A stretch of DNA of 64,000 nucleotides from contig JBGSPE010000011.1 in the NCBI GenBank assembly GCA_041738755.1, forward strand, positions 70,658-134,657, in the 5' to 3' direction. The translations under genes and the position numbers were made by a program. The notes beneath the pieces were generated by a model, which saw nothing but the letters and a program-made list of their open reading frames with translations, had not been told where the DNA came from and made no database searches. The DNA comes from Minisyncoccia bacterium (lineage in GTDB: Bacteria; Patescibacteriota; Minisyncoccia; Phycocordibacterales; UBA918). Shown here in pieces: positions 3,595 to 45,964 of this stretch (positions are counted from its first letter, which is position 1; each line of letters starts with the position of its first letter).

Positions 3595-4287
3595 TTAGTC
3601 AGAACTATTGGTAAAAATAGTAAGCTCTGGTAATTCTTTAAAGATACTAAATGGGGCGGCTGGAGAAAATGTATTCATAGTACGTAACTCTTGAATCAAG
3701 TGAACCTTATCATTCCCTGTCGCATACACGATAACAGCATTCAACTGGCTTCGTAAAAACGTGTAGGTAACAGTGACTCTGTCCGGATACGGGTTAATAA
3801 TTAGAGGAACAGAATATCCGACCACCCAGGCCTCGCCACTAAAATCAACTCCCCACTCGCCTGGGAAAATCCCGGCCGTATGGCCATCTACACCAATTCC
3901 CATCGTAGCTACAACTACCCCGTTGGTATGTTGTGCTTTCCAGGCTCGCAGGGATGACTCAAATCTTTCACTGAACCCGAACAAACTTTCACCCGCCAAC
4001 ACTTTGGTATCAATTAGATGTACGCTTCGCTCAAGAGACTTGGTATAAAAACTTGTGGCTTCTAATTGAGCAAAATTGTTGATTGTTGGGTCAGTCGAAT
4101 ACCGTTCATCAAGGACAGTAAGGGTTAGGTGTGGACCAAGCACAGACGGATCAACTCCCTCGAACAAACCAAAAGCCGAGCCGCCTGACACCAAAAGAAG
4201 TATCGGTTTATCAGCATTGGCGCGGAGTGTTTCAGTGAGTGCTTTGGCCGCTTCGTTGTCTGGGTGCTCTGCCACTACAATCTTCAT
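3595..4287 (-). CDS. pgl: 6-phosphogluconolactonase (DevB/Pgl; glucosamine-6-P isomerase-like fold)
   Basis: LLLVSGGS... family pattern; last gene of the zwf-gnd-pgl operon. Confidence 0.7.
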   Translation of the reverse strand: MKIVVAEHPDNEAAKALTETLRANADKPILLLVSGGSAFGLFEGVDPSVLGPHLTLTVLDERYSTDPTINNFAQLEATSFYTKSLERSVHLIDTKVLAGESLFGFSERFESSLRAWKAQHTNGVVVATMGIGVDGHTAGIFPGEWGVDFSGEAWVVGYSVPLIINPYPDRVTVTYTFLRSQLNAVIVYATGNDKVHLIQELRTMNTFSPAAPFSIFKELPELTIFTNSSD

Positions 4288-32733: not shown

Positions 32734-33234
32734 TCAAAAACCGAAAATTTCCAGCACTTTCAAGAAGAAGGGTTCGTGTAGTTCTTCTTCGGGAATTCGC
32801 TCACGGAGGATGTCCTCAATCGCATCAACATGCTCGAGGGGCAAAGGAAGAACAAGGAGTGGAACAGACTTGCGGGTGGTTCTGATAAGAAGCTGTGGGC
32901 CTCGTGGATCTTCTTCGTCAAGATGGTATGAAACAAGGAGTGGGAACGGAAATAATTCATCTTCAACTTTAATGCCTCGCACACTTACACCGTACGGTAC
33001 AATCGCTGGACGTTTAGCTGCTGAAATTGCGAGCACCCCGCCAGCTAATCCAAGCAAAAGAGCGAACATTACATTATCTAAAAGAATAGCTGTGAATACG
33101 AGCGCCGCCACAACAATAAGCAAGGCCAAAAACCAGTCATTTCCCTTCTCAACATGGTGATGTTGTGGGGCCTCCCAAGAAATTCCACGTGCTGTTGGTT
33201 CCATTTCCAAAATTGTAGCACGGGGACTTGCCAT
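32734..33234 (-). CDS. Hypothetical two-TM membrane protein
   Basis: ORF with two hydrophobic helices; no family recognised. Confidence 0.35.
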   Translation of the reverse strand: MASPRATILEMEPTARGISWEAPQHHHVEKGNDWFLALLIVVAALVFTAILLDNVMFALLLGLAGGVLAISAAKRPAIVPYGVSVRGIKVEDELFPFPLLVSYHLDEEDPRGPQLLIRTTRKSVPLLVLPLPLEHVDAIEDILRERIPEEELHEPFFLKVLEIFGF

Positions 33235-33316: not shown

Positions 33317-33405
33317 GGAGGGATGGCTGAGTGGTTGAAGGCGGCAGTCTTGAAAACTGTTAAGGGTTTACGCCCTTCGAGGGTTCGAATCCCTCTCCCT
33401 CCGCC
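33317..33405 (+). tRNA. tRNA-Ser (anticodon TGA), long variable arm, CCA encoded
   Basis: Acceptor GGAGGGA..., anticodon loop CTTGAAA, variable arm, T-loop GGTTCGAATCC. Confidence 0.85.
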
Positions 33406-33498
33406 AAGTCGTGCTAGCACGAGACGCGTCAAAATGGCGCTACTCTAGCAAGTAAAAAGCTCGTCAGAAATGACGAGCTTTTTACTATCTGTTGATAT

Positions 33499-35262
33499 CT
33501 ACTGACTAGATTTTTGAATATGTTGAATGATTAAATTACGATTTTTTAACCTAAACGAATGACACAATGCGACTGCCTCAAATTGAGCAATTTTAGATTC
33601 AAATCGTCTTGCTTCAAAATTTGCACGAGTCATGGCTGTTCCGTGGGCACACGCCATTACATAAATTCGTTCCTTTTCCGTAAAAAGAGTAACGAATTCA
33701 TCCTCCGACATCTTTGCCCGCTCTCCCGCATGCCACCTTTGGTAATACTCTCGCAACTTACTACCATCTCCTCGTGCTGACTCTTCAATCACATCAGCGG
33801 CTATTTCCAGCTGCGAAACAGCATCCCGTACGGAACCAGCAAAACCATCTTTAACCTGAATTATATAGAGCTTATTTTCCGAAACATGAAGCAAATCAAA
33901 GAGTTCGACTTTCCCTCTTCCGTCCCAAAGATAATATTTGTCCCCGAAATAAAAATTATCGCTATCGATATAAGCCTCGTTATAAACACCTTCATCTGCA
34001 TGATTCCAGTTAATAAAAGGTATGTCAGTACTCAGATGACCACGCTCAAATAACTGTTCAACCAGGTCTTCAAGAAGATAGTCGAAAAAACTACCAACAG
34101 GTTCATACCATTTACCATCAACATAGAAGTATGTCTTTCCGTCGATATGTACTTCACCATGAAAGTACTTCCTCAGCTTAGCCTCAAAAGGTGCGGCATC
34201 CTCATGGGCCTTAAAAGTGAAGTCAAATTTTTCAAAGCTTTTTATAAACTCATCAATACCTTCATGATAGTTCACCAAGTTAGCTGTTCGCATATGTTGC
34301 AAAACCTGTACAGCATTCGGAGCATGAGCTTCGTCGACCATTGAATTTCCTACTTGATACTCACACCCAGACAAAAACTCGGTCACACTCTCAGGGTGAC
34401 AAAAATCATAATCAGCTACTCTACCGTAGGTATCGTCCACTAACGCACGATAGAAAATTGTAAGTAATGAGGTTTCGAGTCGTTCTCTCATTTGCTTTGA
34501 CTTAACCTCAGCAAGAGTGTCGAGGTATTTAAACTTTTCTTTACGTTCAGCGCTCAGTGCGGGCAAGCCTTGGAGAGCATTTATGAGCTTAATTATTTGC
34601 TCCAGATTCACTGATTTACGGAAAGTAAACGACGACTTCATTTCGGCACTAATCTTTTTTCGATGATCTAGCACAAGACTTAGCTCCGGATTGTTCTGAA
34701 TGATGGTGGCATCAATTTCCCCGTACAGTTTTTTCCAGACCTTTCCAAAAGCTTCTGAGCGAGAATAACTGTACGAGCGGCGGTAGTTCTCTGTTTTTGA
34801 GTATACTTCACTCACTAGGTCACGTACTTCCGCGTATTTGAACTCACCTTGAAATAACTTTTTTGAGACCTCTAGGGGAAATGAGTCATCAGTGTAGGTT
34901 TGAATGGCGAAATAACCTGCGCCGGCTGTGAGTACAAAGATGTCATTTACATCATATACAAATAAAATGAAGTCCTTGTTTATACTTTGGAACAGTTCAG
35001 AATTATTACGCTCGTCCTCATTTATTGGATCTACAAAATCCGCCCAGGTAAAGGAGATGCGTTTTTTATTAAATAATTGGATTCTTTTTTCTTGGAACGT
35101 TGCGGCAACGTTTACTGGCGATAGTTTAAAGTCTTCATTTTGCTCTTTAGTATTATAGTTTTCAACTATAAGTCCTATAGTCTGATCAGTCGTCATACCA
35201 GCAAACAAAGTCCGATCTCTATCTATTTTCCAAATTGCAAGGTTGCTTTTCTTTTCTGACAT
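33499..35262 (-). CDS. Large uncharacterised protein (587 aa); possible C-terminal PD-(D/E)xK-like nuclease motif
   Basis: ELFDLLHV...LYIIQVKDG resembles the hhD...(E/Q)xK nuclease core; last gene of the cassette. Confidence 0.35.
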   Translation of the reverse strand: MSEKKSNLAIWKIDRDRTLFAGMTTDQTIGLIVENYNTKEQNEDFKLSPVNVAATFQEKRIQLFNKKRISFTWADFVDPINEDERNNSELFQSINKDFILFVYDVNDIFVLTAGAGYFAIQTYTDDSFPLEVSKKLFQGEFKYAEVRDLVSEVYSKTENYRRSYSYSRSEAFGKVWKKLYGEIDATIIQNNPELSLVLDHRKKISAEMKSSFTFRKSVNLEQIIKLINALQGLPALSAERKEKFKYLDTLAEVKSKQMRERLETSLLTIFYRALVDDTYGRVADYDFCHPESVTEFLSGCEYQVGNSMVDEAHAPNAVQVLQHMRTANLVNYHEGIDEFIKSFEKFDFTFKAHEDAAPFEAKLRKYFHGEVHIDGKTYFYVDGKWYEPVGSFFDYLLEDLVEQLFERGHLSTDIPFINWNHADEGVYNEAYIDSDNFYFGDKYYLWDGRGKVELFDLLHVSENKLYIIQVKDGFAGSVRDAVSQLEIAADVIEESARGDGSKLREYYQRWHAGERAKMSEDEFVTLFTEKERIYVMACAHGTAMTRANFEARRFESKIAQFEAVALCHSFRLKNRNLIIQHIQKSSQ

Positions 35263-35347
35263 AAGTTGCTTTTATACACTTTTAACTATTCGACCAGTTA
35301 ATTATGCCGCTATCAAAACAACCTGGCAGCTAGCCGCCAACTGCAAA

Positions 35348-36151
35348 CTATGTTGTAGCGGCATTTATATCTGCTGCGGTTTTTTCAATTAAATCTTTAA
35401 GGGAATTTGCCTCTAAAGTGATGATTTTCTTCGTACCGTAAGCTAGATTCAGCTCCTTCATTAGTTTTCGAACTCTCTCTCGAGAACTGGCAAACTCAGT
35501 ATGGGTACCTAGATAATCTAGGACTGATATTAAGATCCGATTTGATCGTCCCATCGCACGTTCGAGCACCTGCTGATAGATATCTTGAGTAGACAGCAAA
35601 ATACCAGTGTAGTAATAAGGATCGTCCTTCTTTAACCCTCCAAAGAATTCTGGATCGGTCTCCCACGGAGCATGTGTCAGGTGTGCAGCCCACCACAGTC
35701 GTGCGATTGCATGACGACGAAGATCGCGATCGTTGCCACTAATGAACCAGTGTTCAAGTAGGTAGTTAATTGCTTTACTTTTTTCCACCGAATCCTTAAG
35801 GCTCTCGAGGGATACATTCAGCCCCCATCGGGTGAGAGAGTATTTTCTAAATTCCACATGACTCAGGTAAGTCCATAGTCGAGGATCGGACGCCTGTGTT
35901 TCGTCTAGATTTTTGTAGTGCTCGTGGAGTGAAATGGCGTTGTCCAAATCAGCAGACACAGGATCTTTTTCAGGTGTCGCAAGTACCGGTGGCTTGCCCC
36001 CAAGAGCTATTGTAGAAGTGAGTAGTTCTGCTTCGTTCACTGGAAAATCTTCCTTGAAATAGTTTTCAAGAGAAATTCCGGACCGCAAATCATTGCGCAT
36101 CTTATCGACTACCGCCCGTTTAAATATTTTTTGTGCAAGGTTTTTACTCAT
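35348..36151 (-). CDS. Uncharacterised protein (267 aa), cassette component
   Basis: ORF; 8-nt overlap with the upstream gene (translational coupling). Confidence 0.35.
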   Translation of the reverse strand: MSKNLAQKIFKRAVVDKMRNDLRSGISLENYFKEDFPVNEAELLTSTIALGGKPPVLATPEKDPVSADLDNAISLHEHYKNLDETQASDPRLWTYLSHVEFRKYSLTRWGLNVSLESLKDSVEKSKAINYLLEHWFISGNDRDLRRHAIARLWWAAHLTHAPWETDPEFFGGLKKDDPYYYTGILLSTQDIYQQVLERAMGRSNRILISVLDYLGTHTEFASSRERVRKLMKELNLAYGTKKIITLEANSLKDLIEKTAADINAATT

Positions 36152-36917
36152 ATTCTTCTTCGTCTGCTGTGCTAATAAGTGTACTTATACCCGCATATCC
36201 GCGTGATGCTGGATTATCCAAGATCTTCTGCGCTGCTTCAAACGGATCCTTATCGTCGAGTCTCTTCGCTTCAAGTATGGCAGTCAACCTACCATACCAA
36301 TTCGCATTCTCGTACTCGCTATTTGACGTCTGAATTTTATGAATAGCATCAACAAGAGCTGGGAAAACTATGGCGCTGTGAAGTATGCCCTGAACTGGCT
36401 TCTGTCCGCGTACCTCGAGGTAGTTCCGCCAATCAACCTTAGACAGAACAATAGTGATTTTTTCTGTTTCGTAATCAATCTGCATCGGACCCTCGTGTTG
36501 TGTACCTTCCATGATTGACATGAATGAAGAGACAGGGGGACGTAGTGGATCAAATGCCTTTTCCGCAATAAATGATGCTTGTCCTCCTACAGCTAGAATT
36601 TCTCCAGCCTCAATGTTAAAAGTTTCACCCTCGTAGTCGGAGTGCGGTTCTGTTGGACGATACCCTTTAATGTTTTGGTCCGCACAGATTGAGAAAGTAA
36701 CAGTGACGCGTTCACGGAGCATCTTGGAAGGAATGGTCATTTTGTCATCAAGTTTACGCGTTGAAAAACTCCTGCGGAAGAATGTGCTTCGACACTCAAC
36801 TTCGATTGTGAATGAGGCCTTTTCTTTCTTCAATAATTCCTCTATTCCGCCGTTCTTCAAAGAGAATGACGGGCTGAGTGTTACCGCGTCTCGGCCAAGT
36901 TCGTACGGTAACTCCAC
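36144..36917 (-). CDS. Uncharacterised protein (257 aa), cassette component
   Basis: ORF co-oriented and tightly spaced with flanking cassette genes. Confidence 0.35.
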   Translation of the reverse strand: MELPYELGRDAVTLSPSFSLKNGGIEELLKKEKASFTIEVECRSTFFRRSFSTRKLDDKMTIPSKMLRERVTVTFSICADQNIKGYRPTEPHSDYEGETFNIEAGEILAVGGQASFIAEKAFDPLRPPVSSFMSIMEGTQHEGPMQIDYETEKITIVLSKVDWRNYLEVRGQKPVQGILHSAIVFPALVDAIHKIQTSNSEYENANWYGRLTAILEAKRLDDKDPFEAAQKILDNPASRGYAGISTLISTADEEEYE

Positions 36918-36977
36918 TTTGAAGAAGCCCCGAGGTCATCCCCGTTGCTGAGTACCGGATGTGGATATGATTTAGTG

Positions 36978-38903
36978 TTAACCTTCATATGTTTCTATGC
37001 CGAGAGCATACTTATTCGCTGACGGAAGCTTAACCGCAAGCTTTAATGTTTCTCCGACTTTGACAATTAGACCTTTTATAATCGAGTCGCCGATTTCGTA
37101 TACTTTTCCGCTCTTTACATCTTTAGCCGATACAATATCCACTGGGTAACTACCATCATCGCCGACAGCGACTATACGTATAGAACCTTCACAGTCTTCA
37201 TGCCCAGTAATAGCTAGGCGGTATTCCATTCCATTTTTCGAATCATGTACGAAACTACGAAATGAAATGGATGATGTTTTGATTCTCATACCATCGTCTG
37301 TTCCGGACTTTGCTCCAGTCTCACGACTACGAGTACCACTACCCGGGCCTTCTGGTGGTACATGTATCACTTTATCTTGTTGCTTATTTGTCACAATGCT
37401 CTTACGTGTAACCGAGCTTGTATCAGCAATGTCCGCATCGCGATCTGCACCAATTTCCCGACCTGACTCTATGCCGGTTGACATACCAGTCTCTTCAAGA
37501 GCCTCACTACCATCAGAAGGCATGTAATCACGCTCTTCGCTGTCAGGAAGATAGCGGTCAAGTCCAGGGATATCCTCAGGCTCACTTGTCAGCGACTCAG
37601 CCATAGTCTTCAGCGACTGTTTTATAAATAAATCAAGCTCTCTAAGAGCCGCCGGTCCCTTGGAGGAACGTGCGTGATCCCACTTATCATGCGCGGGTGG
37701 TTCTATGTCACGAAGTATTTCATTGCCACGATCATCTTCACAAATAAAGACTCCTGAGTACGGTTCTCGCAAAACTCGATATGCTTTCTCCTGTACGAGC
37801 ATCTTTGGCTTACGCACCATCATGACTCTGCTAGGATAGCCGTCGTTTTTACGAACGTATAACTTGACCTTACCTAGATTTCGCAGGTCTTGTTCAAATA
37901 TATTGCTCGACGGGCTGGTTACCGCATCAAAATGGAAACGAGCATCCCCAACATCATAATCTTCAAAGCATTGCTGAAGATTGTCTTTAGTAATTACTAG
38001 CTCTCCACCATCACGAATGGTAACTTCTAGGTTACCGTGAAGAATGGTCAGCCAAAAATTATGTAGCACCGATTTAATAAGTTTCTCTTCCCATTCTGGA
38101 CCAGCATCGTATCCCATAATGAATATATCTGTACCGCGCTCTTCGCGTTTGAACAAAGAAGGAACGATATCGGCCTGCCTGATTGCTTTATATCCTTCAA
38201 CTCCAAAAAATCCAACACCCTGGCGTACATCCTTCTTTTCATTGTGATGACTAACGAGGCGAGCCTTTCCTTGGCAAACGAGTTCATTTTTGTCATTGAT
38301 GCTTGAATAGAAAACCGTACGTAGCAAGGACGCAGCAATAGGCGCACCTTTGCCGATACCGAAAGAACCTCCCCCCACTCCCTTAAAGTTACTGGTACCT
38401 GCAGCACGTACGAGACGGTACCAATTCCCTTCAACTTCCGAGTCCCCTCCTGAAAGTCCCTTGGTATTGAAATCACTGATTTTAAGAACAGGTAGTTTGT
38501 TACTTTTAAGAAGGGCGATAGCGTCTTTGAAGAATTTTTCGGCTTTTTCCTGACCTTTCACGAAGACAAGACACTGATGCATACGCCTAAGCAACTCGTC
38601 CCGACCCGGCACATCTTTAGGATTCACTGTCAGCCGTTCAAATACCACTGATACCGGTACATTGTATTCTAAGCGTGCATCTATAGAGTTTTGAATCGCC
38701 TCACGAGCGATATATTTCTCATGATCACCTTGGAAATATTCTAGAAGTGAGTCGGAAAATCCGTGATTCTCACCATGATCTGTGCTCGGGAAAAACCAAC
38801 AGAGATCTGCACTCTTCTTTTCTTCCTCCTTCGTTACTTTTTTTATTGAGGCCTTCTTTTGGTGTTTGGTTGGCATGTTATTAAAGTTTGAATTCTTTAT
38901 CAC
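36978..38903 (-). CDS. GHKL-superfamily (HATPase_c / MORC-MutL-like) ATPase, 641 aa
   Basis: N-box EAIQNSIDA and G-box NFKGVGGGSFGIGKGA of the Bergerat ATP-binding fold; long Ser/Gly/Asp-rich linker and a C-terminal beta-rich region. Confidence 0.6.
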   Translation of the reverse strand: MIKNSNFNNMPTKHQKKASIKKVTKEEEKKSADLCWFFPSTDHGENHGFSDSLLEYFQGDHEKYIAREAIQNSIDARLEYNVPVSVVFERLTVNPKDVPGRDELLRRMHQCLVFVKGQEKAEKFFKDAIALLKSNKLPVLKISDFNTKGLSGGDSEVEGNWYRLVRAAGTSNFKGVGGGSFGIGKGAPIAASLLRTVFYSSINDKNELVCQGKARLVSHHNEKKDVRQGVGFFGVEGYKAIRQADIVPSLFKREERGTDIFIMGYDAGPEWEEKLIKSVLHNFWLTILHGNLEVTIRDGGELVITKDNLQQCFEDYDVGDARFHFDAVTSPSSNIFEQDLRNLGKVKLYVRKNDGYPSRVMMVRKPKMLVQEKAYRVLREPYSGVFICEDDRGNEILRDIEPPAHDKWDHARSSKGPAALRELDLFIKQSLKTMAESLTSEPEDIPGLDRYLPDSEERDYMPSDGSEALEETGMSTGIESGREIGADRDADIADTSSVTRKSIVTNKQQDKVIHVPPEGPGSGTRSRETGAKSGTDDGMRIKTSSISFRSFVHDSKNGMEYRLAITGHEDCEGSIRIVAVGDDGSYPVDIVSAKDVKSGKVYEIGDSIIKGLIVKVGETLKLAVKLPSANKYALGIETYEG

Positions 38904-39096
38904 GGTTAGGGAAGGTGAATTTTGATTTCGCTTCTCTAATCTTTTTTTCTATTTCAGAAAAAATCTTATTCACCTCATCCTCAGTGTAATCGTAATGGCT
39001 ACGGTTCGCACAGTTGGCCAGTATTTTCACACGTCGAAGCACCTCATTTGTCCGAGTAGTAGCAAGCCTCTTAAAATTTTCTCTCCTGTCATCCAT
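38881..39096 (-). CDS. Small (71 aa) basic protein preceding the GHKL ATPase; possible regulator
   Basis: ORF overlapping the GHKL start by 23 nt; located between Dcm and the cassette. Confidence 0.3.
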   Translation of the reverse strand: MDDRRENFKRLATTRTNEVLRRVKILANCANRSHYDYTEDEVNKIFSEIEKKIREAKSKFTFPNRDKEFKL

Positions 39097-39202
39097 AGAT
39101 AATATATATCATAGGACAATACATTATGTCAAATAGTAGTCTATTTACATAAAATAACGTTCATTTAGAAATTGGTTATTTGGCAGTTCTTTTAGGACCA
39201 CC

Positions 39203-40177
39203 TCACGATTCAAGGGCAATACGAATATTTTCTGCAATTCTAGAAATAACAGGAACAGTTACTGAATTACCGACCTGCTTGTAAAGATGTGAGTTCGCCT
39301 GGTCTTTAGGCAGTTTGAACGACTCGGGAAATCCTTGGAGACGGGCGCATTCGCGCGGAGTGAGTTTTCTAATTCCTTTTGCATCTCTAATGATCGGCAC
39401 ATTATGGCCACCCATACCCATACTCGCTGTAAGTGTCGGAGCCATGCCATTCTTGAGTTCGCGAACGTATACGCGACGATATTGGTAGAACCGATCGCGG
39501 TGCTTTACAGCTTTCTTTACCCTGTCGTATATCTCGCCATAGCGCTTATCATAATAGAATTCATCTCCTACATTCTTTTCCAAAATGTTAGACATTTTCT
39601 TCGTGAGCACTATCTCATCTGGAAAGCGGAACTTCATAAGTGTCCTCGGCGAACGGAACGCGACAATATAAATTCGCTCTCTAGATTGCGGAACGTTGCC
39701 GTGCGTCGAACTATTGAGAACTTGTGCCTTCATGTAGTAACCAGCATTTTTTAATTCCTCTTCTATCCGCTTGAAGGTTTTTTCATCGTCGTGATTCATG
39801 AGGTGCTTTACGTTCTCGAGGAATACCGCATCTGGCTTCCGACTTTTGAGAATATCAATCACCGCGAACAGTGCATTACCTCTGTTCTTAACATCTTTAA
39901 ATCCCTGCTTATTGCCAGCAACAGAGAATGGTTGACAAGGAAAGCCTCCGAGAAGAATGTCAAAACGCTTAGGTACTTTCTTCATATCTGAATCCTTAAT
40001 CACCTCAAAAAGATCTCGATTGTCTAATTCGCCAAAATTAAGCTTATATGTTTCGGCAGCATGCTTATCAAAATCATTCGAGTAAGCTATTTCAAAACCC
40101 GCAGATTCAAATCCAATACGAATGCCACCGATACCGGCAAACAAGTCAATCGCCTTTAAATTCTTTTTACGCGCCAT
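39203..40177 (-). CDS. dcm: DNA (cytosine-5)-methyltransferase
   Basis: Motif I DLFAGIGG, motif IV GGFPCQPFS, motif VI ENV. Confidence 0.85.
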   Translation of the reverse strand: MARKKNLKAIDLFAGIGGIRIGFESAGFEIAYSNDFDKHAAETYKLNFGELDNRDLFEVIKDSDMKKVPKRFDILLGGFPCQPFSVAGNKQGFKDVKNRGNALFAVIDILKSRKPDAVFLENVKHLMNHDDEKTFKRIEEELKNAGYYMKAQVLNSSTHGNVPQSRERIYIVAFRSPRTLMKFRFPDEIVLTKKMSNILEKNVGDEFYYDKRYGEIYDRVKKAVKHRDRFYQYRRVYVRELKNGMAPTLTASMGMGGHNVPIIRDAKGIRKLTPRECARLQGFPESFKLPKDQANSHLYKQVGNSVTVPVISRIAENIRIALES

Positions 40178-40235
40178 AATAATTTCCTTACATTATAGCT
40201 TTTTTCATAAAATTTCGCTGCAGTCGTTATCAAGA

Positions 40236-41566
40236 CAGCTAACACTTTATATGCTCAACTTTTTACCTTGCATAAAGATAGTCGAACTAAAGCAGGAAAT
40301 CACGTCCCGCTTCTCCTCCATCGTTCCATCTTTAAGTAGGAACTTCACATAATCCTTCACATCAATGTCGCTCACAGCCACGTCCGACCTCTCCCCTAAC
40401 AGTGACCTGTGAAATTTCTTGTATCTGATTACCTCAGCCTCAACTTTCTTTTTAACTCTCGTCTCGTTGAGATTTGCCGTATCGATGAGCTTTTGAAGTT
40501 ATGTTATTAGGTCATCTTCATTGATGTAGCCACACGGACAATGCGGGTCTCTTGCTTTCGTACATCCGTAATAGACATGAGTCTTTATAGTCCCGTTCTT
40601 ATGCTTCTTATACTTTGCATCAGCACTAATGCCAGATCCACATAGCCCGCATGTCATGAGTTTAGTAAATGCAAACTCTTTATCTTGTCGTGTCTTTAGT
40701 TCATTACCTTTAAGCTGTACTTGAACAAGGTCGTAAAGTTCTTTTGTTATGAGTGGTTTGTGTTTACCCTGATACCAGTTCCCGCTGTCTCTTGGGTATT
40801 CAAAGACGCCATAGTAGAAGTGATTCTCAAGCAAGCGGTAAATGTTACCAAGACTGAGTGGCTTCTTACTTGGAAGAGCTTTAAAGTTAAGGTCAAACTT
40901 AAGCCAGTGATACAGCTTTCTCCCACTCCACTTATCGTACGCTACTTTTTCAAACATCTGCTTCACAACATGTCCTCTTTCAGGATCGATTAGCGTCTCG
41001 CACTTTCGATCCATTCGTTTTTCTTTTAAGTACCCAGTCGGCGCTGGTGCGGGCCAGAGTCCCATTTCAACTCGTGTCTTTAAACCTCGCTTCACATTGA
41101 TACTTTTGTTGTCGTTCTCGAGCTTTGCCTGAGAACAGAGAATCATTAGTAGAAACTTTTCACTTGGTGTATTTGTGAACGTCTGTCCATACGTTCGTAT
41201 CTCGTGTAGCAAATGTTGATCCATAAGGTCTACGAGTGATCCTAAGTCACCAGCATTACGGCTAAGGCGATCTGGATGCCAAACAATAATCCCGTTAAAT
41301 CTTTCTCTTCGAATGTCCTCCAGTATTTCTTTAAAAACAGGACGTTGTCCAGAGTCTTTCGCAGAATGTGACTCTCTTCGTATCTCTACTATGTCCAACC
41401 CCTCACGTTCAGCGATAGCAAGCATCTCTTTAACCTGTGAATCAATTGAGAGCGCTTGCTTCTCATCAGATTCGGTAGATTTTCTAGCGTAGAGCAAATA
41501 TTTAACAGGTACTTTTGGTACCTCAGTTTTAACCCCAAAGTTGTTCATCATCTGTGTTTCCATCAT
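40236..41566 (-). pseudogene. Large serine recombinase interrupted by an in-frame TAA (stop at 40499..40501); the frame continues for 84 more codons
   Basis: Resolvase catalytic domain YARKSTESDEKQ, recombinase domain, zinc ribbon CGLCG...C..C, then ...NEDDLIT*LQKLIDTANLNETRVKKK... in the same frame. Confidence 0.65.
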
Positions 41567-41902
41567 TAATTAATGACAGAACCATGTATGGTGCAAAGCT
41601 ATGCAGAACTAGGTAAACGTCGCATACTCCTCCTTAAGACTTAGCAAAACAGCAAACGTGCGATAGGGTGAAAACGGTAGCAAAAACTGTTATTATGTTC
41701 GTTACAACACCTAAACCAGATAGTAATTTCTGGCATGGTGCAAAGAAATCCTACGCAAATAGAAACGGCCACATAAGCCGGCACTTATTTGCGTAGGTTC
41801 GCTCTCGAAAGGGAGCGGGATAATTCCGAAAGGAGTTGTCGTCGGTCTTGTGTGGCCATTTGTGTTACCAAGATTTTATAAATAAAACCTACGCAAAAAA
41901 AT

Positions 41903-42112
41903 ATGAACAAATGGGAATACAAAGTTATCACTCCTAAAATGGAGGGTTGGATTAAGAAGAAGGTGTCAGCAGACACCTTCGACGAATTGAATGAGTTAGG
42001 TATTCAGGGGTGGGAGTTAATTAACGTTGTGCCTGTGACAGCAAATACGGGTACGAGCTGGGGCGGTACTACAGCGTCATTTGTGTTTTTCCTCAAACGG
42101 ACTCTTTCTTAA
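41903..42112 (+). CDS. DUF4177-like small protein
   Basis: MNKWEYKVITPK...GWEL pattern typical of DUF4177. Confidence 0.45.
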   Translation: MNKWEYKVITPKMEGWIKKKVSADTFDELNELGIQGWELINVVPVTANTGTSWGGTTASFVFFLKRTLS

Positions 42113-42488
42113 GCTTCATAAATTTAGCAAGCATATCTTCCATAGTCTTCAATTCACCCTCGTCTAACTTGTCTGGTGGAGGCTGTTTGGATATAGGTAC
42201 ATTATCTGATTGTGGTTTATAACTCGGATGTCGGTGTTGGAGCCAAAAGCGTACAGCTGCCCAGTTTTTCTCTTGAGCCATCCTCAGTAACTGACTCTCA
42301 GTCATATCGTTCATGTTAGCAATACCTTCCTGCATCGCCTTATCCATTTCAAGTTCAAATCCATGGTCCTCACGACACCAACGGTAAACAGTTTGCCTAG
42401 CAATACCGACTATTTTGCAGGCATTCAAGACATTGGGTACTTTCCGAAGCTCATCGAGGAATTGCTTCGAGTACTTAGGCTTTTTCAT
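42093..42488 (-). CDS. HTH protein resembling the phage terminase small subunit N-terminal DNA-binding domain
   Basis: KYSKQFLDELRKVPNVLNACKIVGIARQTVYRWCRED pattern. Confidence 0.4.
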   Translation of the reverse strand: MKKPKYSKQFLDELRKVPNVLNACKIVGIARQTVYRWCREDHGFELEMDKAMQEGIANMNDMTESQLLRMAQEKNWAAVRFWLQHRHPSYKPQSDNVPISKQPPPDKLDEGELKTMEDMLAKFMKLKKESV

Positions 42489-43785
42489 AATAGCCTTTAA
42501 TTATCTCCGCCTTTTTGCCTGTCAGCTTCTCGTACCTATTGATTGCCAGTTGGCAAAAGATGGGCTCAATCTCAGTGGCATACACTCGACGCTTCAACTG
42601 TTCAGCCGCAATCATGGTACTCGCTGATCCAGAAAATGAATCAAGGATAATATCGCCTGGCCTAGAACAGCGTTTGATAGCTTTTTCGTGTAATGTCGGT
42701 GGTTTAGAGGTGGCGTGTTCGTAGTCCTTAGAATTGAGTCGTTTTGCACTCCAAACGTTTGTAACGTCTTCTAGCAGCTCGTTGCCAGTACCTAGCTCCT
42801 TATTCATTATCTCGTTAGCGTTACGCACTTGGTCAGACAAGAATGGTGAACCCGTAGTGCCATAGACGCAGAACTCAGTCACTTTGTTGAAAGCTACGGT
42901 AGGGGTCGGGGAAGCGTTATTCTTCAGCCATAAATTTAGACGGCGGTTTTTGATACCCAGCTCGTTATAGAGAGTTTGGAATACCCACACCCACGCCTCA
43001 TCACACCAATAAAAGTAGTGTGCATCAGGTTGTGTTACCGACATTGCTGCTTTGAGTGACTTCTCAATAAAGGACTTATACTCACTAGCAGTTTTATTAT
43101 CATCTACCGTACCGCCATAGTTTTGCTTATTCCCAACGCCTTTGTCATAGCTTAAACCAATATTATAGATTGGGTCGCTATAGACCATGGCGGCTTTGTC
43201 TCCATTAAACAGCGCCTTAAGCGCATCAGGGTCAAGAGCATCGGCACAAAGGAGTTTATGGTCACCAAGGATAATCAGATCACCTAGCTCTATATCAGTC
43301 TCCTTAATTTTCTTTATCTCCTTGTCTGGATTAAACGTGTCGCCTTTAACTTCTACTTCCGCGTCCCAGAACTTACTCAACTCAACTTGGTCAAATCCTA
43401 TATCAGTTAGTAGCTCAAGACCAAAGTCTTTGAGTAACTCGTAGTCCCAGTCACCAGTTACAGCGTTAGAAGTGATGAGATACTGTCGGTACTCATCTTC
43501 TGTTAGCTTACGATTAGGAACTCGTACATCAATTACTTCTTTACCTCGTCCCAGTAACTGCATCACCTTTAGTCGTTGGTGACCAGCCACTATTCGACCA
43601 TCAGTATCAATCACAGGGATTTCAACTAGGTTGAACTTGGTAAAACTTTTCTTCAGGTCAGATAATTGCTTTGAGCTAATAGTACGAGGGTTCTTCTCAT
43701 ACGGTATTAGCGTATCGACAACACGGGTTTCCGTGTGCCATGAAAGAGTGTTCATGAGCGTATAGTTACGCGAATAAAATTGCAT
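42475..43785 (-). CDS. ParB-like nuclease domain fused to a beta-class N6-adenine/N4-cytosine DNA methyltransferase
   Basis: N-terminal ParB-N-like region (GHQRL); motif IV SDPIYN (DPPY) precedes motif I ILDSFSGSAST. Confidence 0.75.
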   Translation of the reverse strand: MQFYSRNYTLMNTLSWHTETRVVDTLIPYEKNPRTISSKQLSDLKKSFTKFNLVEIPVIDTDGRIVAGHQRLKVMQLLGRGKEVIDVRVPNRKLTEDEYRQYLITSNAVTGDWDYELLKDFGLELLTDIGFDQVELSKFWDAEVEVKGDTFNPDKEIKKIKETDIELGDLIILGDHKLLCADALDPDALKALFNGDKAAMVYSDPIYNIGLSYDKGVGNKQNYGGTVDDNKTASEYKSFIEKSLKAAMSVTQPDAHYFYWCDEAWVWVFQTLYNELGIKNRRLNLWLKNNASPTPTVAFNKVTEFCVYGTTGSPFLSDQVRNANEIMNKELGTGNELLEDVTNVWSAKRLNSKDYEHATSKPPTLHEKAIKRCSRPGDIILDSFSGSASTMIAAEQLKRRVYATEIEPIFCQLAINRYEKLTGKKAEIIKGYYEKA

Positions 43786-44156
43786 ATAGTGCCTGCCTAT
43801 TTCTAGACCCGGACTTTTTTCACAAATTTCATCGCGACCATTAACTTACGTCATGATCGTTACTTAGACGATATACCTACTGGGCTGTAATTGGAAGAGT
43901 ACACAGTTGTACACCTTGTGGATAGCCGAGTAACAAAACGAAACAAAAAAGTTACAGGGTACTGTAACTTGAGAAGTGAAAAATCTGTCACTTTTGTCAC
44001 TTTTTAATGAGCACGAGACCCTTCGATTTATGAACCTCGGAAGTAGCAAAACGGCCAAGCCCTGCTTGACGGCTCACGGTTCTAGCACGAGACGGCCCGC
44101 TCATTGAAAATGCACCCATCTTGGGTGCTATTTTCTAGAGTGGAGAGGATTAAACT

Positions 44157-45017
44157 TTACAAATCAGACTGTGAAGTCCATACGGTTGTAGTTGTGGTTT
44201 TCACTGAACCGTTGGCACTAGTGACAGTTTCCGTTCTAGATGATCCACCAGTATCTCTAAAACTATTATGTTGGTCGGTAAGCTCACTATTAAAGACCTT
44301 CTCAAATACTGTACCAACTGTATATGGGGCGATTTTTTTACGAAGATTTAAGTTAACTTCAATGAATTTATAAAATAAACCTTTTTCACCTGGTTTGCGA
44401 TGTTCAGAAATATGGAAATAAGCATCAAAAGTAGTTTTAAAAGTAAGGAGTAATATTGCTGGCAATAAATCAACAAACGTCGCAGTTTCACCAGCACTTG
44501 CTAGTGAATTAATCACATCTGGTAAAAATACAATTACCATTACATGTGTAAATATAACTCTTTTAAAGGGTGTGAAAATCGCATTAAAAGAAGCATCAAA
44601 TTTTTCATATTCTTTACTAAGCAGAAAGTTTGTGACGTATGATATACCGTGGCTTGCAAGTAAGGTACCAATTATTATCGATAGATCTGAGACGTTTATA
44701 CCGAGATTCTGGTACCCACTAAAGTAAAATATAGCAAATAAAACCAAGCCATGAACTAAGCTAAAACCCCCAAAAAAGATGATAAAGAACGTAGAATCTT
44801 TATTCTGTACAGCCGTATTGGAAGACCTTTCGATTTTCTTTAACTTAAGTAAGGAGAATAAAAGTACGATAAGATTTTCAAACCAGTACGCAACTATAAT
44901 TGTCGTAATATCCCAGCCAAGGAAAACGAAACCGTAGATAGTAAATACATTTGCTGCAATTAAGCTTGAAAGCGCGTAGCCATTAGAAACATGTAACATA
45001 CATAATAAGTATAACAA
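44157..45017 (-). CDS. Polytopic membrane protein, hypothetical
   Basis: Multiple TM helices; no family recognised. Confidence 0.4.
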   Translation of the reverse strand: MLYLLCMLHVSNGYALSSLIAANVFTIYGFVFLGWDITTIIVAYWFENLIVLLFSLLKLKKIERSSNTAVQNKDSTFFIIFFGGFSLVHGLVLFAIFYFSGYQNLGINVSDLSIIIGTLLASHGISYVTNFLLSKEYEKFDASFNAIFTPFKRVIFTHVMVIVFLPDVINSLASAGETATFVDLLPAILLLTFKTTFDAYFHISEHRKPGEKGLFYKFIEVNLNLRKKIAPYTVGTVFEKVFNSELTDQHNSFRDTGGSSRTETVTSANGSVKTTTTTVWTSQSDL

Positions 45018-45067: not shown

Positions 45068-45964
45068 CTAGCTTTTATATTCCACCGCAAACTTCTGGAC
45101 CGTGTGATTAATTTGCTCACGCAATTTGAGACTAGCTTTTTTGGTCGGTGCCTCGAGTGAAAAGACGATATCATCTTTCGTATTTTCCTTTACGTATAAC
45201 TTACACTTATCAAGTTCAAACGTGTTTGGATATTGTATATCCAGGTGCTTTAGGAGGGCTTGCTCAAACGGATCCACTGCAGTGAGTTGCGCCCGGAGCA
45301 TGCGAAACTCAGTGTTAATTCTTTTTGGCTTTAGTTTACTAAAATTCACCACTTCTTTGGCGTGAATTACCGTGTTAGGAATAAAAAGCACATCACCTGA
45401 TTCAGTCTTCAGTTGAACACTGGAGAAAGTCACGTTTCGGATTACTCCTTTTGGCATATCCCCTACTTGAATATAGTCCCCGATTTCATAATCAACAGAA
45501 AACATAATTGAAAATCCAAACAGGAAGTTTTTGATAAAGTCTTGGAAGATAATAGTGAGTGCAACTGCAACAAGCGCAATCGAACTTAAGAAACTTCGAA
45601 ACTCAATATCAAAGACTACAAAGATAAAAGCGACCGTAGCAAAACCCGTAAGAGCATTCACCAGAGCGTTCACACCGACCGTAAAATTATCGTGCTCCTC
45701 GGTTGAAATATTGCGCCGCCGACGGTGGCCAGAGACAACTAGAATACGAATGATATTAATACTGATATTTGTTATCAGGGTATACAGAACCACCCAAAAG
45801 GTTTGGAGTGCATAAGGTATCTCAACGAGAAGTGGGTGAGCAAACCATTTAAACACTGCCAGGGTAGCTAGCAAAACAATCGACAGCACAAATTGTTGCT
45901 TTCGATGGGCTGATACCAGGGATGATTGGAGTGTGATTGTTTGCAAAAATTGTTTCATTATCAT
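45068..45964 (-). CDS. Small-conductance mechanosensitive channel (MscS family)
   Basis: IGDYIQVGDMPKGVIRNVTFSSVQLKTESGDVLFIPN MscS beta-domain signature. Confidence 0.75.
   Translation of the reverse strand: MIMKQFLQTITLQSSLVSAHRKQQFVLSIVLLATLAVFKWFAHPLLVEIPYALQTFWVVLYTLITNISINIIRILVVSGHRRRRNISTEEHDNFTVGVNALVNALTGFATVAFIFVVFDIEFRSFLSSIALVAVALTIIFQDFIKNFLFGFSIMFSVDYEIGDYIQVGDMPKGVIRNVTFSSVQLKTESGDVLFIPNTVIHAKEVVNFSKLKPKRINTEFRMLRAQLTAVDPFEQALLKHLDIQYPNTFELDKCKLYVKENTKDDIVFSLEAPTKKASLKLREQINHTVQKFAVEYKS

Follow-up and report, generated by a model that had tools for sequence, protein, structure and literature searches.

We have analysed a 64,000-nucleotide stretch of a Minisyncoccia bacterium genome from the Patescibacteriota (GenBank assembly GCA_041738755.1, contig JBGSPE010000011.1, positions 70,658 to 134,657 of the forward strand; hereafter the window) and conclude, with a probability of about 0.8, that a mobile element occupies the segment from 33403 to 44098 (10,696 bp), where a large serine recombinase (LSR) integrated it in the 3′ end of tRNA-Ser(UGA). 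The host's nearest PolA homologues, at 81% identity and below, belong to Candidatus Pacebacteria, Parcubacteria and Paceibacterota, which places it among the Patescibacteria (CPR). An original prediction, made from the letters of the window, had proposed a mobile and defence island of about 10.7 kb next to this tRNA gene, and syntenic relatives with an empty site now bear it out. Comparison with related contigs demonstrates the insertion, the ends of the element, the architecture of the family to which it belongs and the covariation of its attachment core with the target tRNA.

The empty site was found in nine contigs (L223–L231) from five related Paceibacteria genomes, fetched via homologues of p166, the protein gene beside tRNA-Ser, that are 76–84% identical to it. 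All nine have the arrangement tRNA-Ser(tga), p166, tRNA-Arg(gcg) seen in the window, and in all of them tRNA-Ser ends ...CCCTCCGC and runs directly into an A-run and a terminator hairpin, with no island. The next conserved gene beyond tRNA-Ser in L226–L229 is that for MscS, preceded by MliC, MsrB, S20 and RuvA, as in the window. In blastn alignments of the window with these relatives, homology ends at 33404 (33407 for L223) and picks up again at 45073. The alignment to related genomes that had been suggested as a check on the island has thus turned up the empty tRNA-Ser site, with MscS on its far side in L226–L229, and the absence of the element from the same locus in relatives supports insertion into the tRNA 3′ end. 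The placement originally given, beside the tRNA gene, was right as to the gene and wrong as to the position, since the insertion lies inside the tRNA 3′ end and the element supplies the encoded CCA. Indeed, the empty-site orthologues of tRNA-Ser are 88 nt long and lack an encoded CCA, whereas in the window the gene is intact and the bases after the crossover (G73 and the terminal CCA) now come from the element. Among the six tRNAs of the window (12458–55259), CCA is encoded only in tRNA-Leu and in the element-repaired tRNA-Ser; the other four end at C74, and the host therefore depends on a CCA-adding enzyme.

The attachment (att) sites define the ends more closely. In 10 elements for which both ends are available, the 4 nt at the far end, which stand after a 3-nt spacer beyond ...CGAGAC, equal nt 71–74 of the target tRNA (CCGC for Ser, CAGC or GAGC for Gln, CTGC for Trp and GGAG for Asn), which places the exchange within the 3′ strand of the acceptor. 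Only 4–7 bp are identical between attL and attR; the window shares just CCGC (4 nt), far shorter than in classical islands. The direct repeat that had been thought to bound the island is real in that the 13-mer CTAGCACGAGACG has exactly two copies in the window (33414–33426 and 44082–44094; a third match at 34668, with 2 mismatches, is at chance level), but it did not arise as an att duplication: each copy belongs to the element, and the two flank the core in the reconstructed attP. The ends proposed from it, 33406 and 44095, nevertheless fall within 3–5 bp of the inferred crossover (33401–33404 and 44097–44100), and the partial copy suspected at 44009 exists as GCACGAGAC at 44011–44019, where it belongs to a motif that is conserved throughout the family of elements. 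The caution that a 13-mer alone is not decisive was well placed, significance coming instead from the comparison, with the same end motifs in dozens of contigs and the tRNA-side palindrome after none of 118 control genes.

The reconstructed attP, TTGACGGCTCACGGTTCTAGCACGAGACGGC-CC-GCCAAGTCGTGCTAGCACGAGACGCGTCAA, is about 64 bp long and quasi-palindromic. Its arms are in-register inverted repeats, identical at 13 of 20 positions beside the core and ending in TTGACG/CGTCAA, so that the pattern reads TTGACG-N10-CTAGCACGA ... TCGTGCTAG-N9-CGTCAA. The centre of this symmetry is CC in the window (33401–33402) and CA or CT in other elements, in each case non-palindromic, and we infer that the crossover dinucleotide is the CC at 33401–33402, corresponding to tRNA positions 71–72. 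The two copies of the 13-bp repeat are predicted to be recombinase-binding arms and not a target duplication, and the anatomy of the sites, as reconstructed, is of the LSR type, unlike the long tRNA-derived direct repeat of tyrosine integrases. The most conserved block of the P arm, ACGGTTCTAG, places GGTTC at −19 to −15 from the core, an offset that matches the position of the tRNA T-loop (G52–C56) as read from the sequences; this T-loop-like placement suggests how the family can move between tRNAs. The empty attB is predicted to read CCCTCTCCCTCCGCTCATTGAAAATGCACCC and the attP of the circular form ACGGTTCTAGCACGAGACGGCCCGCCAAGTCGTGCTAGCACGAGACGCG. Within the end module, the internal GTCTCGTGC site is similar to the distal half of the P′ arm; just upstream of the gene for a ParB-like domain fused to a DNA methyltransferase (ParB-methyltransferase) lies a tandem repeat, GTGACA-AAA-GTGACA. 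Both are conserved in about a dozen loci and are candidate binding sites for accessory recombinase, a recombination directionality factor or a repressor. A single P arm and a single P′ arm are present in the 64 kb of the window; in other contigs, attP-like junctions of P arm, core and P′ arm (L073 949–1704, L046 ~130, L049 ~1749, L060 ~6942 and L071 ~96) indicate tandem copies. In L073 there is also a unit of ~640 bp consisting of end module and P′ arm only, which may be a miniature non-autonomous derivative.

For comparison of the element with its family we fetched 83 loci encoding relatives of the LSR, three of them from IMG/VR viral predictions. The shared layout comprises an end module, the ParB-methyltransferase gene, a gene for a helix-turn-helix (HTH) protein resembling the terminase small subunit (TerS), often a terminase large subunit (TerL) gene, a divergent LOOT RNA, the LSR gene, variable defence cargo and the tRNA; a repressor gene may follow the end module, and cargo occupies three slots. 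ParB-methyltransferase, HTH and LSR genes are collinear in every contig that extends far enough. Downstream of the LSR gene, the tRNA encountered first has its 3′ end turned towards that gene in 26 of 26 loci, the targets being Ser (five anticodons), Gln (two), Trp and Asn, and in 21 of these the palindrome (A)NTCGTGCTAGCACGA or a close variant stands right after the tRNA, the rest having a longer or diverged form. By comparison, the palindrome is missing downstream of all 118 tRNA genes that have an identical 23-nt 3′ end in other phyla, a control set made up of matches to the tRNA-Ser 3′ 23-mer in genome contigs, which is generic and spans many phyla. The same 23-mer was too generic to serve as a probe for the element, with no Patescibacteria among the 80 matches listed. 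At the other end, the end module (~150 bp) is conserved in ~20 loci by nhmmer. In the JGI contig L012, a 90% identical ParB-methyltransferase/HTH segment is followed by an intact LSR gene; positions 43974–44136 of the window align to a segment 5 kb upstream of this module, and the tRNA-proximal 16-mer GCACGAGACGCGTCAA has a further copy there next to another tRNA, that for Gln. In the LSR tree, proteins group according to their target tRNA, and LSRs that are 99–100% identical stand at tRNA-Trp (L018) and tRNA-Ser (L019), both of which end ...CCGCCA. When proteins were clustered at 90% identity, the LSR cluster had 84 members, that of the ParB-methyltransferase 12 and those of Dcm and the HTH protein 6 each, with the host proteins RuvA and MscS as singletons; the core genes of the island therefore circulate among organisms. 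L012 also contains, between 20056 and 20600, three extra tRNA-Gln 5′ fragments (ccattagacgaaccggcaat), ~150–215 bp apart on the 5′ side of the element-hosting tRNA-Gln, which look like remnants of another kind of element targeting the 5′ half.

We hypothesize that the circular element carries an attP of ~64 bp, in which two imperfect inverted arms surround a core copying the tRNA acceptor end, and that the LSR would pair it with an attB formed by the T-arm/acceptor 3′ strand and trailer of the tRNA gene. Strand exchange would take place at the non-palindromic CC of tRNA positions 71–72, and the tRNA would be rebuilt, its last bases, including the encoded CCA, being supplied by the element. Having terminase genes and no capsid genes among the families detected, the family most likely disperses in the manner of a phage satellite. 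More tentatively, and at somewhat less than even odds, we propose that these loci represent an undescribed and widespread LSR family whose natural attB is the tRNA T-arm/acceptor 3′ end, whose attP mimics and regenerates the tRNA, which mobilises terminase-bearing, satellite-like defence islands among Patescibacteria, and in which LOOT is a dedicated regulator or cofactor of the recombinase module.

The LSR is the probable catalyst of the insertion. Its catalytic domain (PF00239, E 6e-22) has the YARKSTESDE motif in the alignment and is followed C-terminally by PF07508 and PF13408, and the protein matches the integrase family phrog_95 (E 4e-59). Scans of the island proteins found no other recombinase, tblastn with the full-length homologue P0025 found no second LSR in the window, and an LSR is present in all nine complete elements described below. 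The genes listed by the original prediction (serine recombinase, Dcm, ParB-methyltransferase, TerS-like HTH, DUF4177 and the GHKL cassette) are all confirmed, and the interruption it reported in the recombinase gene is a single in-frame TAA at 40499–40501 (CAA to TAA, codon 356), where homologues have Gln. The open reading frame up to the stop covers 40499–41566, and P0025 aligns by tblastn over 443 positions (41566 down to 40238) in a single frame, with 83% identity. An 11-mer motif resembling GCGTCTCGTGC, which many loci have ~28 bp ahead of the LSR start codon, was set aside as noisy (2 mismatches allowed) and is not evident in the window.

Whether the copy in the window is still active has to be weighed at this point. 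The stop might be read through, be an assembly error or be complemented in trans by LSRs of the community; it is the one lesion in an otherwise intact frame whose homologues are of functional length, both att sites look intact, and samples of the same kinds are rich in related LSRs. The same TAA is, however, shared by the NCBI assembly and the Logan contigs of two sequencing runs, it deprives the protein of its C-terminal ~85 residues, and the window offers no second LSR, all of which makes continuing activity unlikely. The copy in the window, with its nonsense codon and without TerL and repressor genes, is probably now a fixed defence island. We also considered and rejected the breaks of the Logan contigs, independent assemblies of this organism, at 33398 (tRNA 3′ end), 41113 (within the LSR gene) and 41837 (LOOT 3′ end; ends of L101 and L001) as signs of population heterogeneity or excision: these sites are shared with other community members (tRNA, LSR, LOOT), and assembly-graph branching is therefore expected there anyway. 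The breaks are consistent with multiple related elements in the sample.

As to the kind of element, the TerS-like HTH gene follows the ParB-methyltransferase gene in every locus that retains the region (~50), and the protein of ~495 residues encoded between it and the LSR gene in relatives is TerL (phrog_38, E 1e-73 to 1e-78), present in 44 loci. This order of ParB-methyltransferase, TerS and TerL is that of a typical phage packaging module, the Dcm/M33 cassette of L004 (see below) lies in a prophage-looking context with a LexA-like repressor, a ParB-methyltransferase and further genes, and three loci come, as said, from viral predictions. The island might accordingly be the decayed remnant of an ordinary temperate phage, in which ParB-methyltransferase, TerS and LSR were left after loss of the structural genes, and not a member of a compact satellite-like family. 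We examined this in nine complete elements bounded by both att ends (9–18 kb, 114 open reading frames), scanned with Pfam and tallied for the 25 commonest families. LSR accounted for 9 proteins, N6/N4 methyltransferase for 8, Peptidase_S24 (LexA/CI-like repressor, in five of the nine elements) for 5, N6_Mtase, ResIII and Shedu SduA_C for 4 each, Eco57I for 3, and MTES_1575 restriction endonuclease and ImmA/IrrE for 2 each. No capsid, portal or tail family was among those detected. Moreover, the LSR gene comes after TerL, or after TerL and a single cargo gene, in all nine, with no structural genes beyond, and this constant order argues for a stable compact architecture over independent decay. 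We regard a phage remnant as improbable, and the gene content of the family appears closer to that of phage satellites and tycheposons than to that of prophages.

A further possibility is that a classical tRNA-targeting tyrosine integrase, since lost, made the insertion and that the LSR is a passenger such as a resolvase or invertase. The 3′ ends of tRNA genes are where tyrosine integrases classically insert. According to the Islander study, no other integrase family is known to target tRNA or tmRNA genes (PMC4383910), and this paper and PMC9262239 both state that no use of tRNA genes by serine integrases is known. The LSR catalogue of Durrant et al. confines its analysis to protein-coding targets and has no mention of tRNA (PMC10083194). 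However, the island has no tyrosine recombinase and none is among the common families of the nine complete elements, attL and attR share 4–7 bp and not a long tRNA-derived repeat, the arms form an LSR-style quasi-palindrome, the LSR phylogeny tracks the target tRNA, and the architecture of Resolvase, Recombinase and zinc ribbon is not that of a small resolvase or invertase; we consider this explanation highly improbable. Scarcely credible is homologous recombination or gradual accretion at a hotspot downstream of tRNA-Ser with a coincidental repeat, for although the far-side gene of tRNA-Ser differs among relatives, an extra accessory gene (DUF6498) lies outside the element and the G+C content is host-like, one and the same pair of end motifs delimits related elements of unrelated contigs, at different tRNAs and with cores that covary, homology with relatives breaks to the base at the predicted crossover, and the window has a single P arm and a single P′ arm.

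Insertion by an LSR of a satellite-like element remains our preferred reading, and several points weigh against it. The evidence for integration and excision is indirect, coming from sequence comparison, and the satellite lifestyle is deduced from gene content. The copy in the window has neither TerL nor the S24 repressor and retains only the TerS-like HTH gene of the packaging genes, and owing to the stop in its LSR gene it cannot mobilise itself unless the codon is read through or help comes in trans. The tally that lacked a tyrosine recombinase covered the 25 commonest Pfam families, so that one or two of the nine elements could hold one. Searches of viral contigs with junction and P-arm patterns found no free attP, one chance match only (the exact 16-mer GCACGAGACGCGTCAA likewise gave four matches there, all of them chance matches inside coding sequence). 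Composition is of little help: the G+C content of the island is 42.5% against 43.5% in the host and does not discriminate, and although tetranucleotide distances of 5-kb windows within the island (0.0132–0.0153, background 0.0114 ± 0.0011) are the highest of the whole stretch, they are only ~2–3.5 standard deviations above background. The k-mer check named in the original prediction thus came out only mildly atypical.

The LOOT RNA lies between the DUF4177 gene and the LSR gene, is read divergently from the latter with 142 bp separating it from the LSR ATG, and has a promoter-like site ahead of it at 41668–41696; the RNA and the DUF4177 gene are the only features of the island on the plus strand. 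A covariance model built from nine copies was searched against 950 kb of LSR loci and gave 32 LOOT-like RNAs, all on the strand opposite the LSR gene and 130–330 bp, typically 142 bp, upstream of its ATG; copies outside the window include L021 8925–9057, L028 4385–4517 and L029 9728–9860, with 28 more loci besides. The gene downstream of LOOT differs from locus to locus, and no DUF4177 homologue occurred in the other loci fetched up to that comparison. LOOT is a fixed component of the LSR module. In an alignment fitted to the model, 96.6% of cells were standard pairs and compensatory changes occurred in 38 of 44 pairs, against ~40% paired in slid controls. The match to the Rfam family RF03000 is full-length, and its four-hairpin structure is backed by this covariation. 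RF03000 is classed as an sRNA in Rfam, and LOOT goes undiscussed in the main text of its source paper (Weinberg et al. 2017, PMC5737381); here it has a constant genomic context, divergent and ~140 bp upstream of an LSR gene in a mobile element. The idea that LOOT is a guide ('bridge') RNA for the recombinase was dropped as speculation: inspection of the alignment by eye showed no stretch of it matching the att core, and none that distinguishes Ser-targeting from Gln-targeting elements.

The cargo of the island consists of a Dcm methyltransferase, a 71-residue open reading frame, the three genes of the candidate defence system PDC-M33 and a DUF6119 protein. In PDC-M33A, the motifs E68/N72/D75, D144/G149 and G179–G184 are invariant in 37 homologues, and an AlphaFold2 model (predicted local distance difference test score, pLDDT, 81) has as its top Foldseek matches Hsp90, TRAP1, TopoVI-B, GyrB and SMCHD1, with E values down to 5e-8; together these mark it as a predicted GHKL ATPase. 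The protein has no Pfam match, and PDB sequence searches with the single sequence and with a profile were empty, as was a single-sequence PDB search with the DUF6119 protein. PDC-M33A, B and C all match PADLOC-DB 2.0 strongly, are co-located and adjoin Dcm, as in other contigs. The cassette of Dcm, Vsr, the 71-residue frame and M33A/B/C found in L004, L005 and others is otherwise identical to that of the window, the difference being the Vsr gene, which follows Dcm in L004, L005, L007, L008 and L009 and is cleanly missing here, leaving 106 bp (39097–39202). Without Vsr, T:G mismatches at Dcm sites would go without dedicated repair. No recognisable restriction endonuclease is encoded in the island despite the presence of Dcm and the ParB-methyltransferase, and the genes do not make up a type II restriction-modification pair. 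Iyer, Abhiman and Aravind are said to have linked MORC-like GHKL ATPases to DNA methylases in 2008; we know of no experimental validation of PDC-M33.

Features of the element and its insertion site (positions in the 64,000-nucleotide window; E, expectation value)
Feature	Position	Strand	Basis or remark
p166, protein gene beside tRNA-Ser	32734–33234		conserved in Paceibacteria
tRNA-Ser(UGA), integration target	33317–33406	+	ARAGORN; Rfam tRNA 58.9 bits
attL core CCGC (tRNA nt 71–74)	33401–33404	+	end of empty-site homology; core covariation
P′ arm of element, CAAGTCGTGCTAGCACGAGACGCGTCAA	33405–33432	+	holds left 13-mer copy; palindrome follows Ser, Gln and Trp tRNAs
DUF6119/TIGR04141 'sporadically distributed' protein, 587 aa	33499–35262	−	
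PDC-M33C (DUF6339)	35348–36151	−	PADLOC E 2e-35
PDC-M33B	36144–36917	−	PADLOC E 3e-54
PDC-M33A, predicted GHKL (Bergerat-fold) ATPase with transducer-like domain	36978–38903	−	PADLOC E 2e-141
71-aa open reading frame, conserved with Dcm/PDC-M33 cassette	38881–39096	−	90% identical frame at same position in L004, L005 and others
Dcm C5-cytosine methyltransferase	39203–40177	−	
LSR, full-length frame, 438 sense codons	40247–41566	−	Resolvase, Recombinase, Zn_ribbon_recom
LOOT RNA (RF03000)	41708–41840	+	Rfam 72.5 bits (gathering 46.4), model positions 1–121 of 121
DUF4177 gene, downstream of LOOT, variable slot	41903–42112	+	Pfam annotation
TerS-like HTH protein, 131 aa	42093–42488	−	phrog_4044 terminase small subunit E 9e-9; weak HTH Pfam matches
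ParB-like N-terminal domain fused to N6/N4 DNA methyltransferase	42475–43785	−	97% identical protein in L012
Conserved end module	43949–44096	−	nhmmer, ParB-methyltransferase side of ~20 loci; alignment to L012
Palindrome in end module	43949–43970		
GTGACA-AAA-GTGACA repeat in end module	43986–44005		
Internal GTCTCGTGC site in end module	44011–44026		
Hairpin in end module	44054–44070		terminator-like hairpins predicted
P arm, with right 13-mer copy	44066–44096		within end module
attR core CCGC	44097–44100	+	core comparison; arm symmetry
B′ flank, displaced original tRNA-Ser trailer and terminator	44101–44135	+	same architecture as empty-site trailers

The surroundings of the element show further variation. 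The hairpin at 44112–44128 in the B′ flank is bidirectional and terminator-like. Both flanks had originally been taken as chromosomal, which holds for MscS and p166, both conserved, and not for the gene at the right end, which encodes a DUF6498 membrane protein (44157–44999, minus strand). It adjoins attR, outside the element and inside the non-homologous stretch, is absent from all syntenic relatives and has a nearest homologue of 30% identity; we count it as a distinct accessory gene of this hotspot. As a probe for synteny it gave no match in the scan of genome contigs and was replaced by p166. The far-side neighbour of tRNA-Ser varies among the relatives (MscS, a Pyr_redox protein or a methyltransferase-like gene). 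An inverted tRNA-Ser 3′-end fragment (GCGGAGGGAGA...ATTCGAA) lies ~45 nt past the tRNA-Ser terminator in L223 (~3770–3800), L226 and L228, with a decayed trace (GGAGAGGATT) at 44137–44156 of the window, and could be the scar of an earlier integration or inversion, or a secondary att-like site. Distant relatives with tRNA-Arg(gcg) and a p166 homologue of 34–45% identity were seen in L044/L045 (1650–3300) and L066; in L044/L045 the end-module side of an LSR element abuts p166, an orientation opposite to that of the window, which suggests a different tRNA arrangement or an inversion at the hotspot.

Three kinds of known system invite comparison. With the tyrosine-integrase islands of the Islander/TIGER type the family shares insertion into the 3′ end of a tRNA gene that the element restores, empty sites in relatives, tandem arrays and integrase clades that track the target, but here the sole recombinase is an LSR, the core is 4–7 bp and not a long tRNA fragment, the arms are quasi-palindromic and one LSR (99–100% identical) stands at two different tRNAs. 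With the LSR integrases (phiC31, Bxb1, SPbeta and CcrAB of SCCmec) it shares the Resolvase, Recombinase and zinc-ribbon architecture, the Y-x-R-x-S-T motif, a short core with a non-palindromic central dinucleotide, an imperfectly palindromic attP of ~50–64 bp and tandem arrays like those of the staphylococcal cassette chromosome (SCC), whereas their described targets are protein-coding or intergenic and here attB is the T-arm/acceptor end of several tRNAs, mimicked by attP. Tycheposons and satellites like the phage-inducible chromosomal islands (PICI) are likewise compact (~10–17 kb), carry cargo, use tRNA genes, in some cases have terS, leave remnants and tandem copies and are inferred to disperse as satellites. 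According to the accessible part of the tycheposon preprint (Hackl et al., bioRxiv 10.1101/2020.12.28.424599), tycheposons often have replication modules, in contrast to the TerS and TerL, ParB-methyltransferase and LOOT RNA of the present family in Patescibacteria. The same part of the preprint gives 910 of 937 integrase-carrying elements with a tyrosine recombinase and 27 with an LSR, the att sites of the latter going undescribed in that text, and these 27 are possibly the closest precedent for an LSR at tRNA genes. The use of tRNA genes by LSRs may be new, as judged from an incomplete coverage of the literature.

The insertion accounts for an 11-kb strain-specific segment of this genome, which can be marked as probably immobilised, and the orphan LOOT RNA gains a reproducible genomic context that makes its function testable. 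The targeting of tRNA genes has been regarded as the preserve of tyrosine integrases, and LSRs are the preferred unidirectional, cofactor-free integration tools, for which tRNA landing sites exist in every genome. If our reading is true, an LSR lineage that reads the near-universal T-arm/acceptor end and is retargeted via a core of 2–4 nt would widen the known target range of these enzymes. To our knowledge, few mobile elements have been described for the ultra-small genomes of Patescibacteria, and the family would show concretely how restriction-modification, Shedu and GHKL-type candidate defence systems pass between them.

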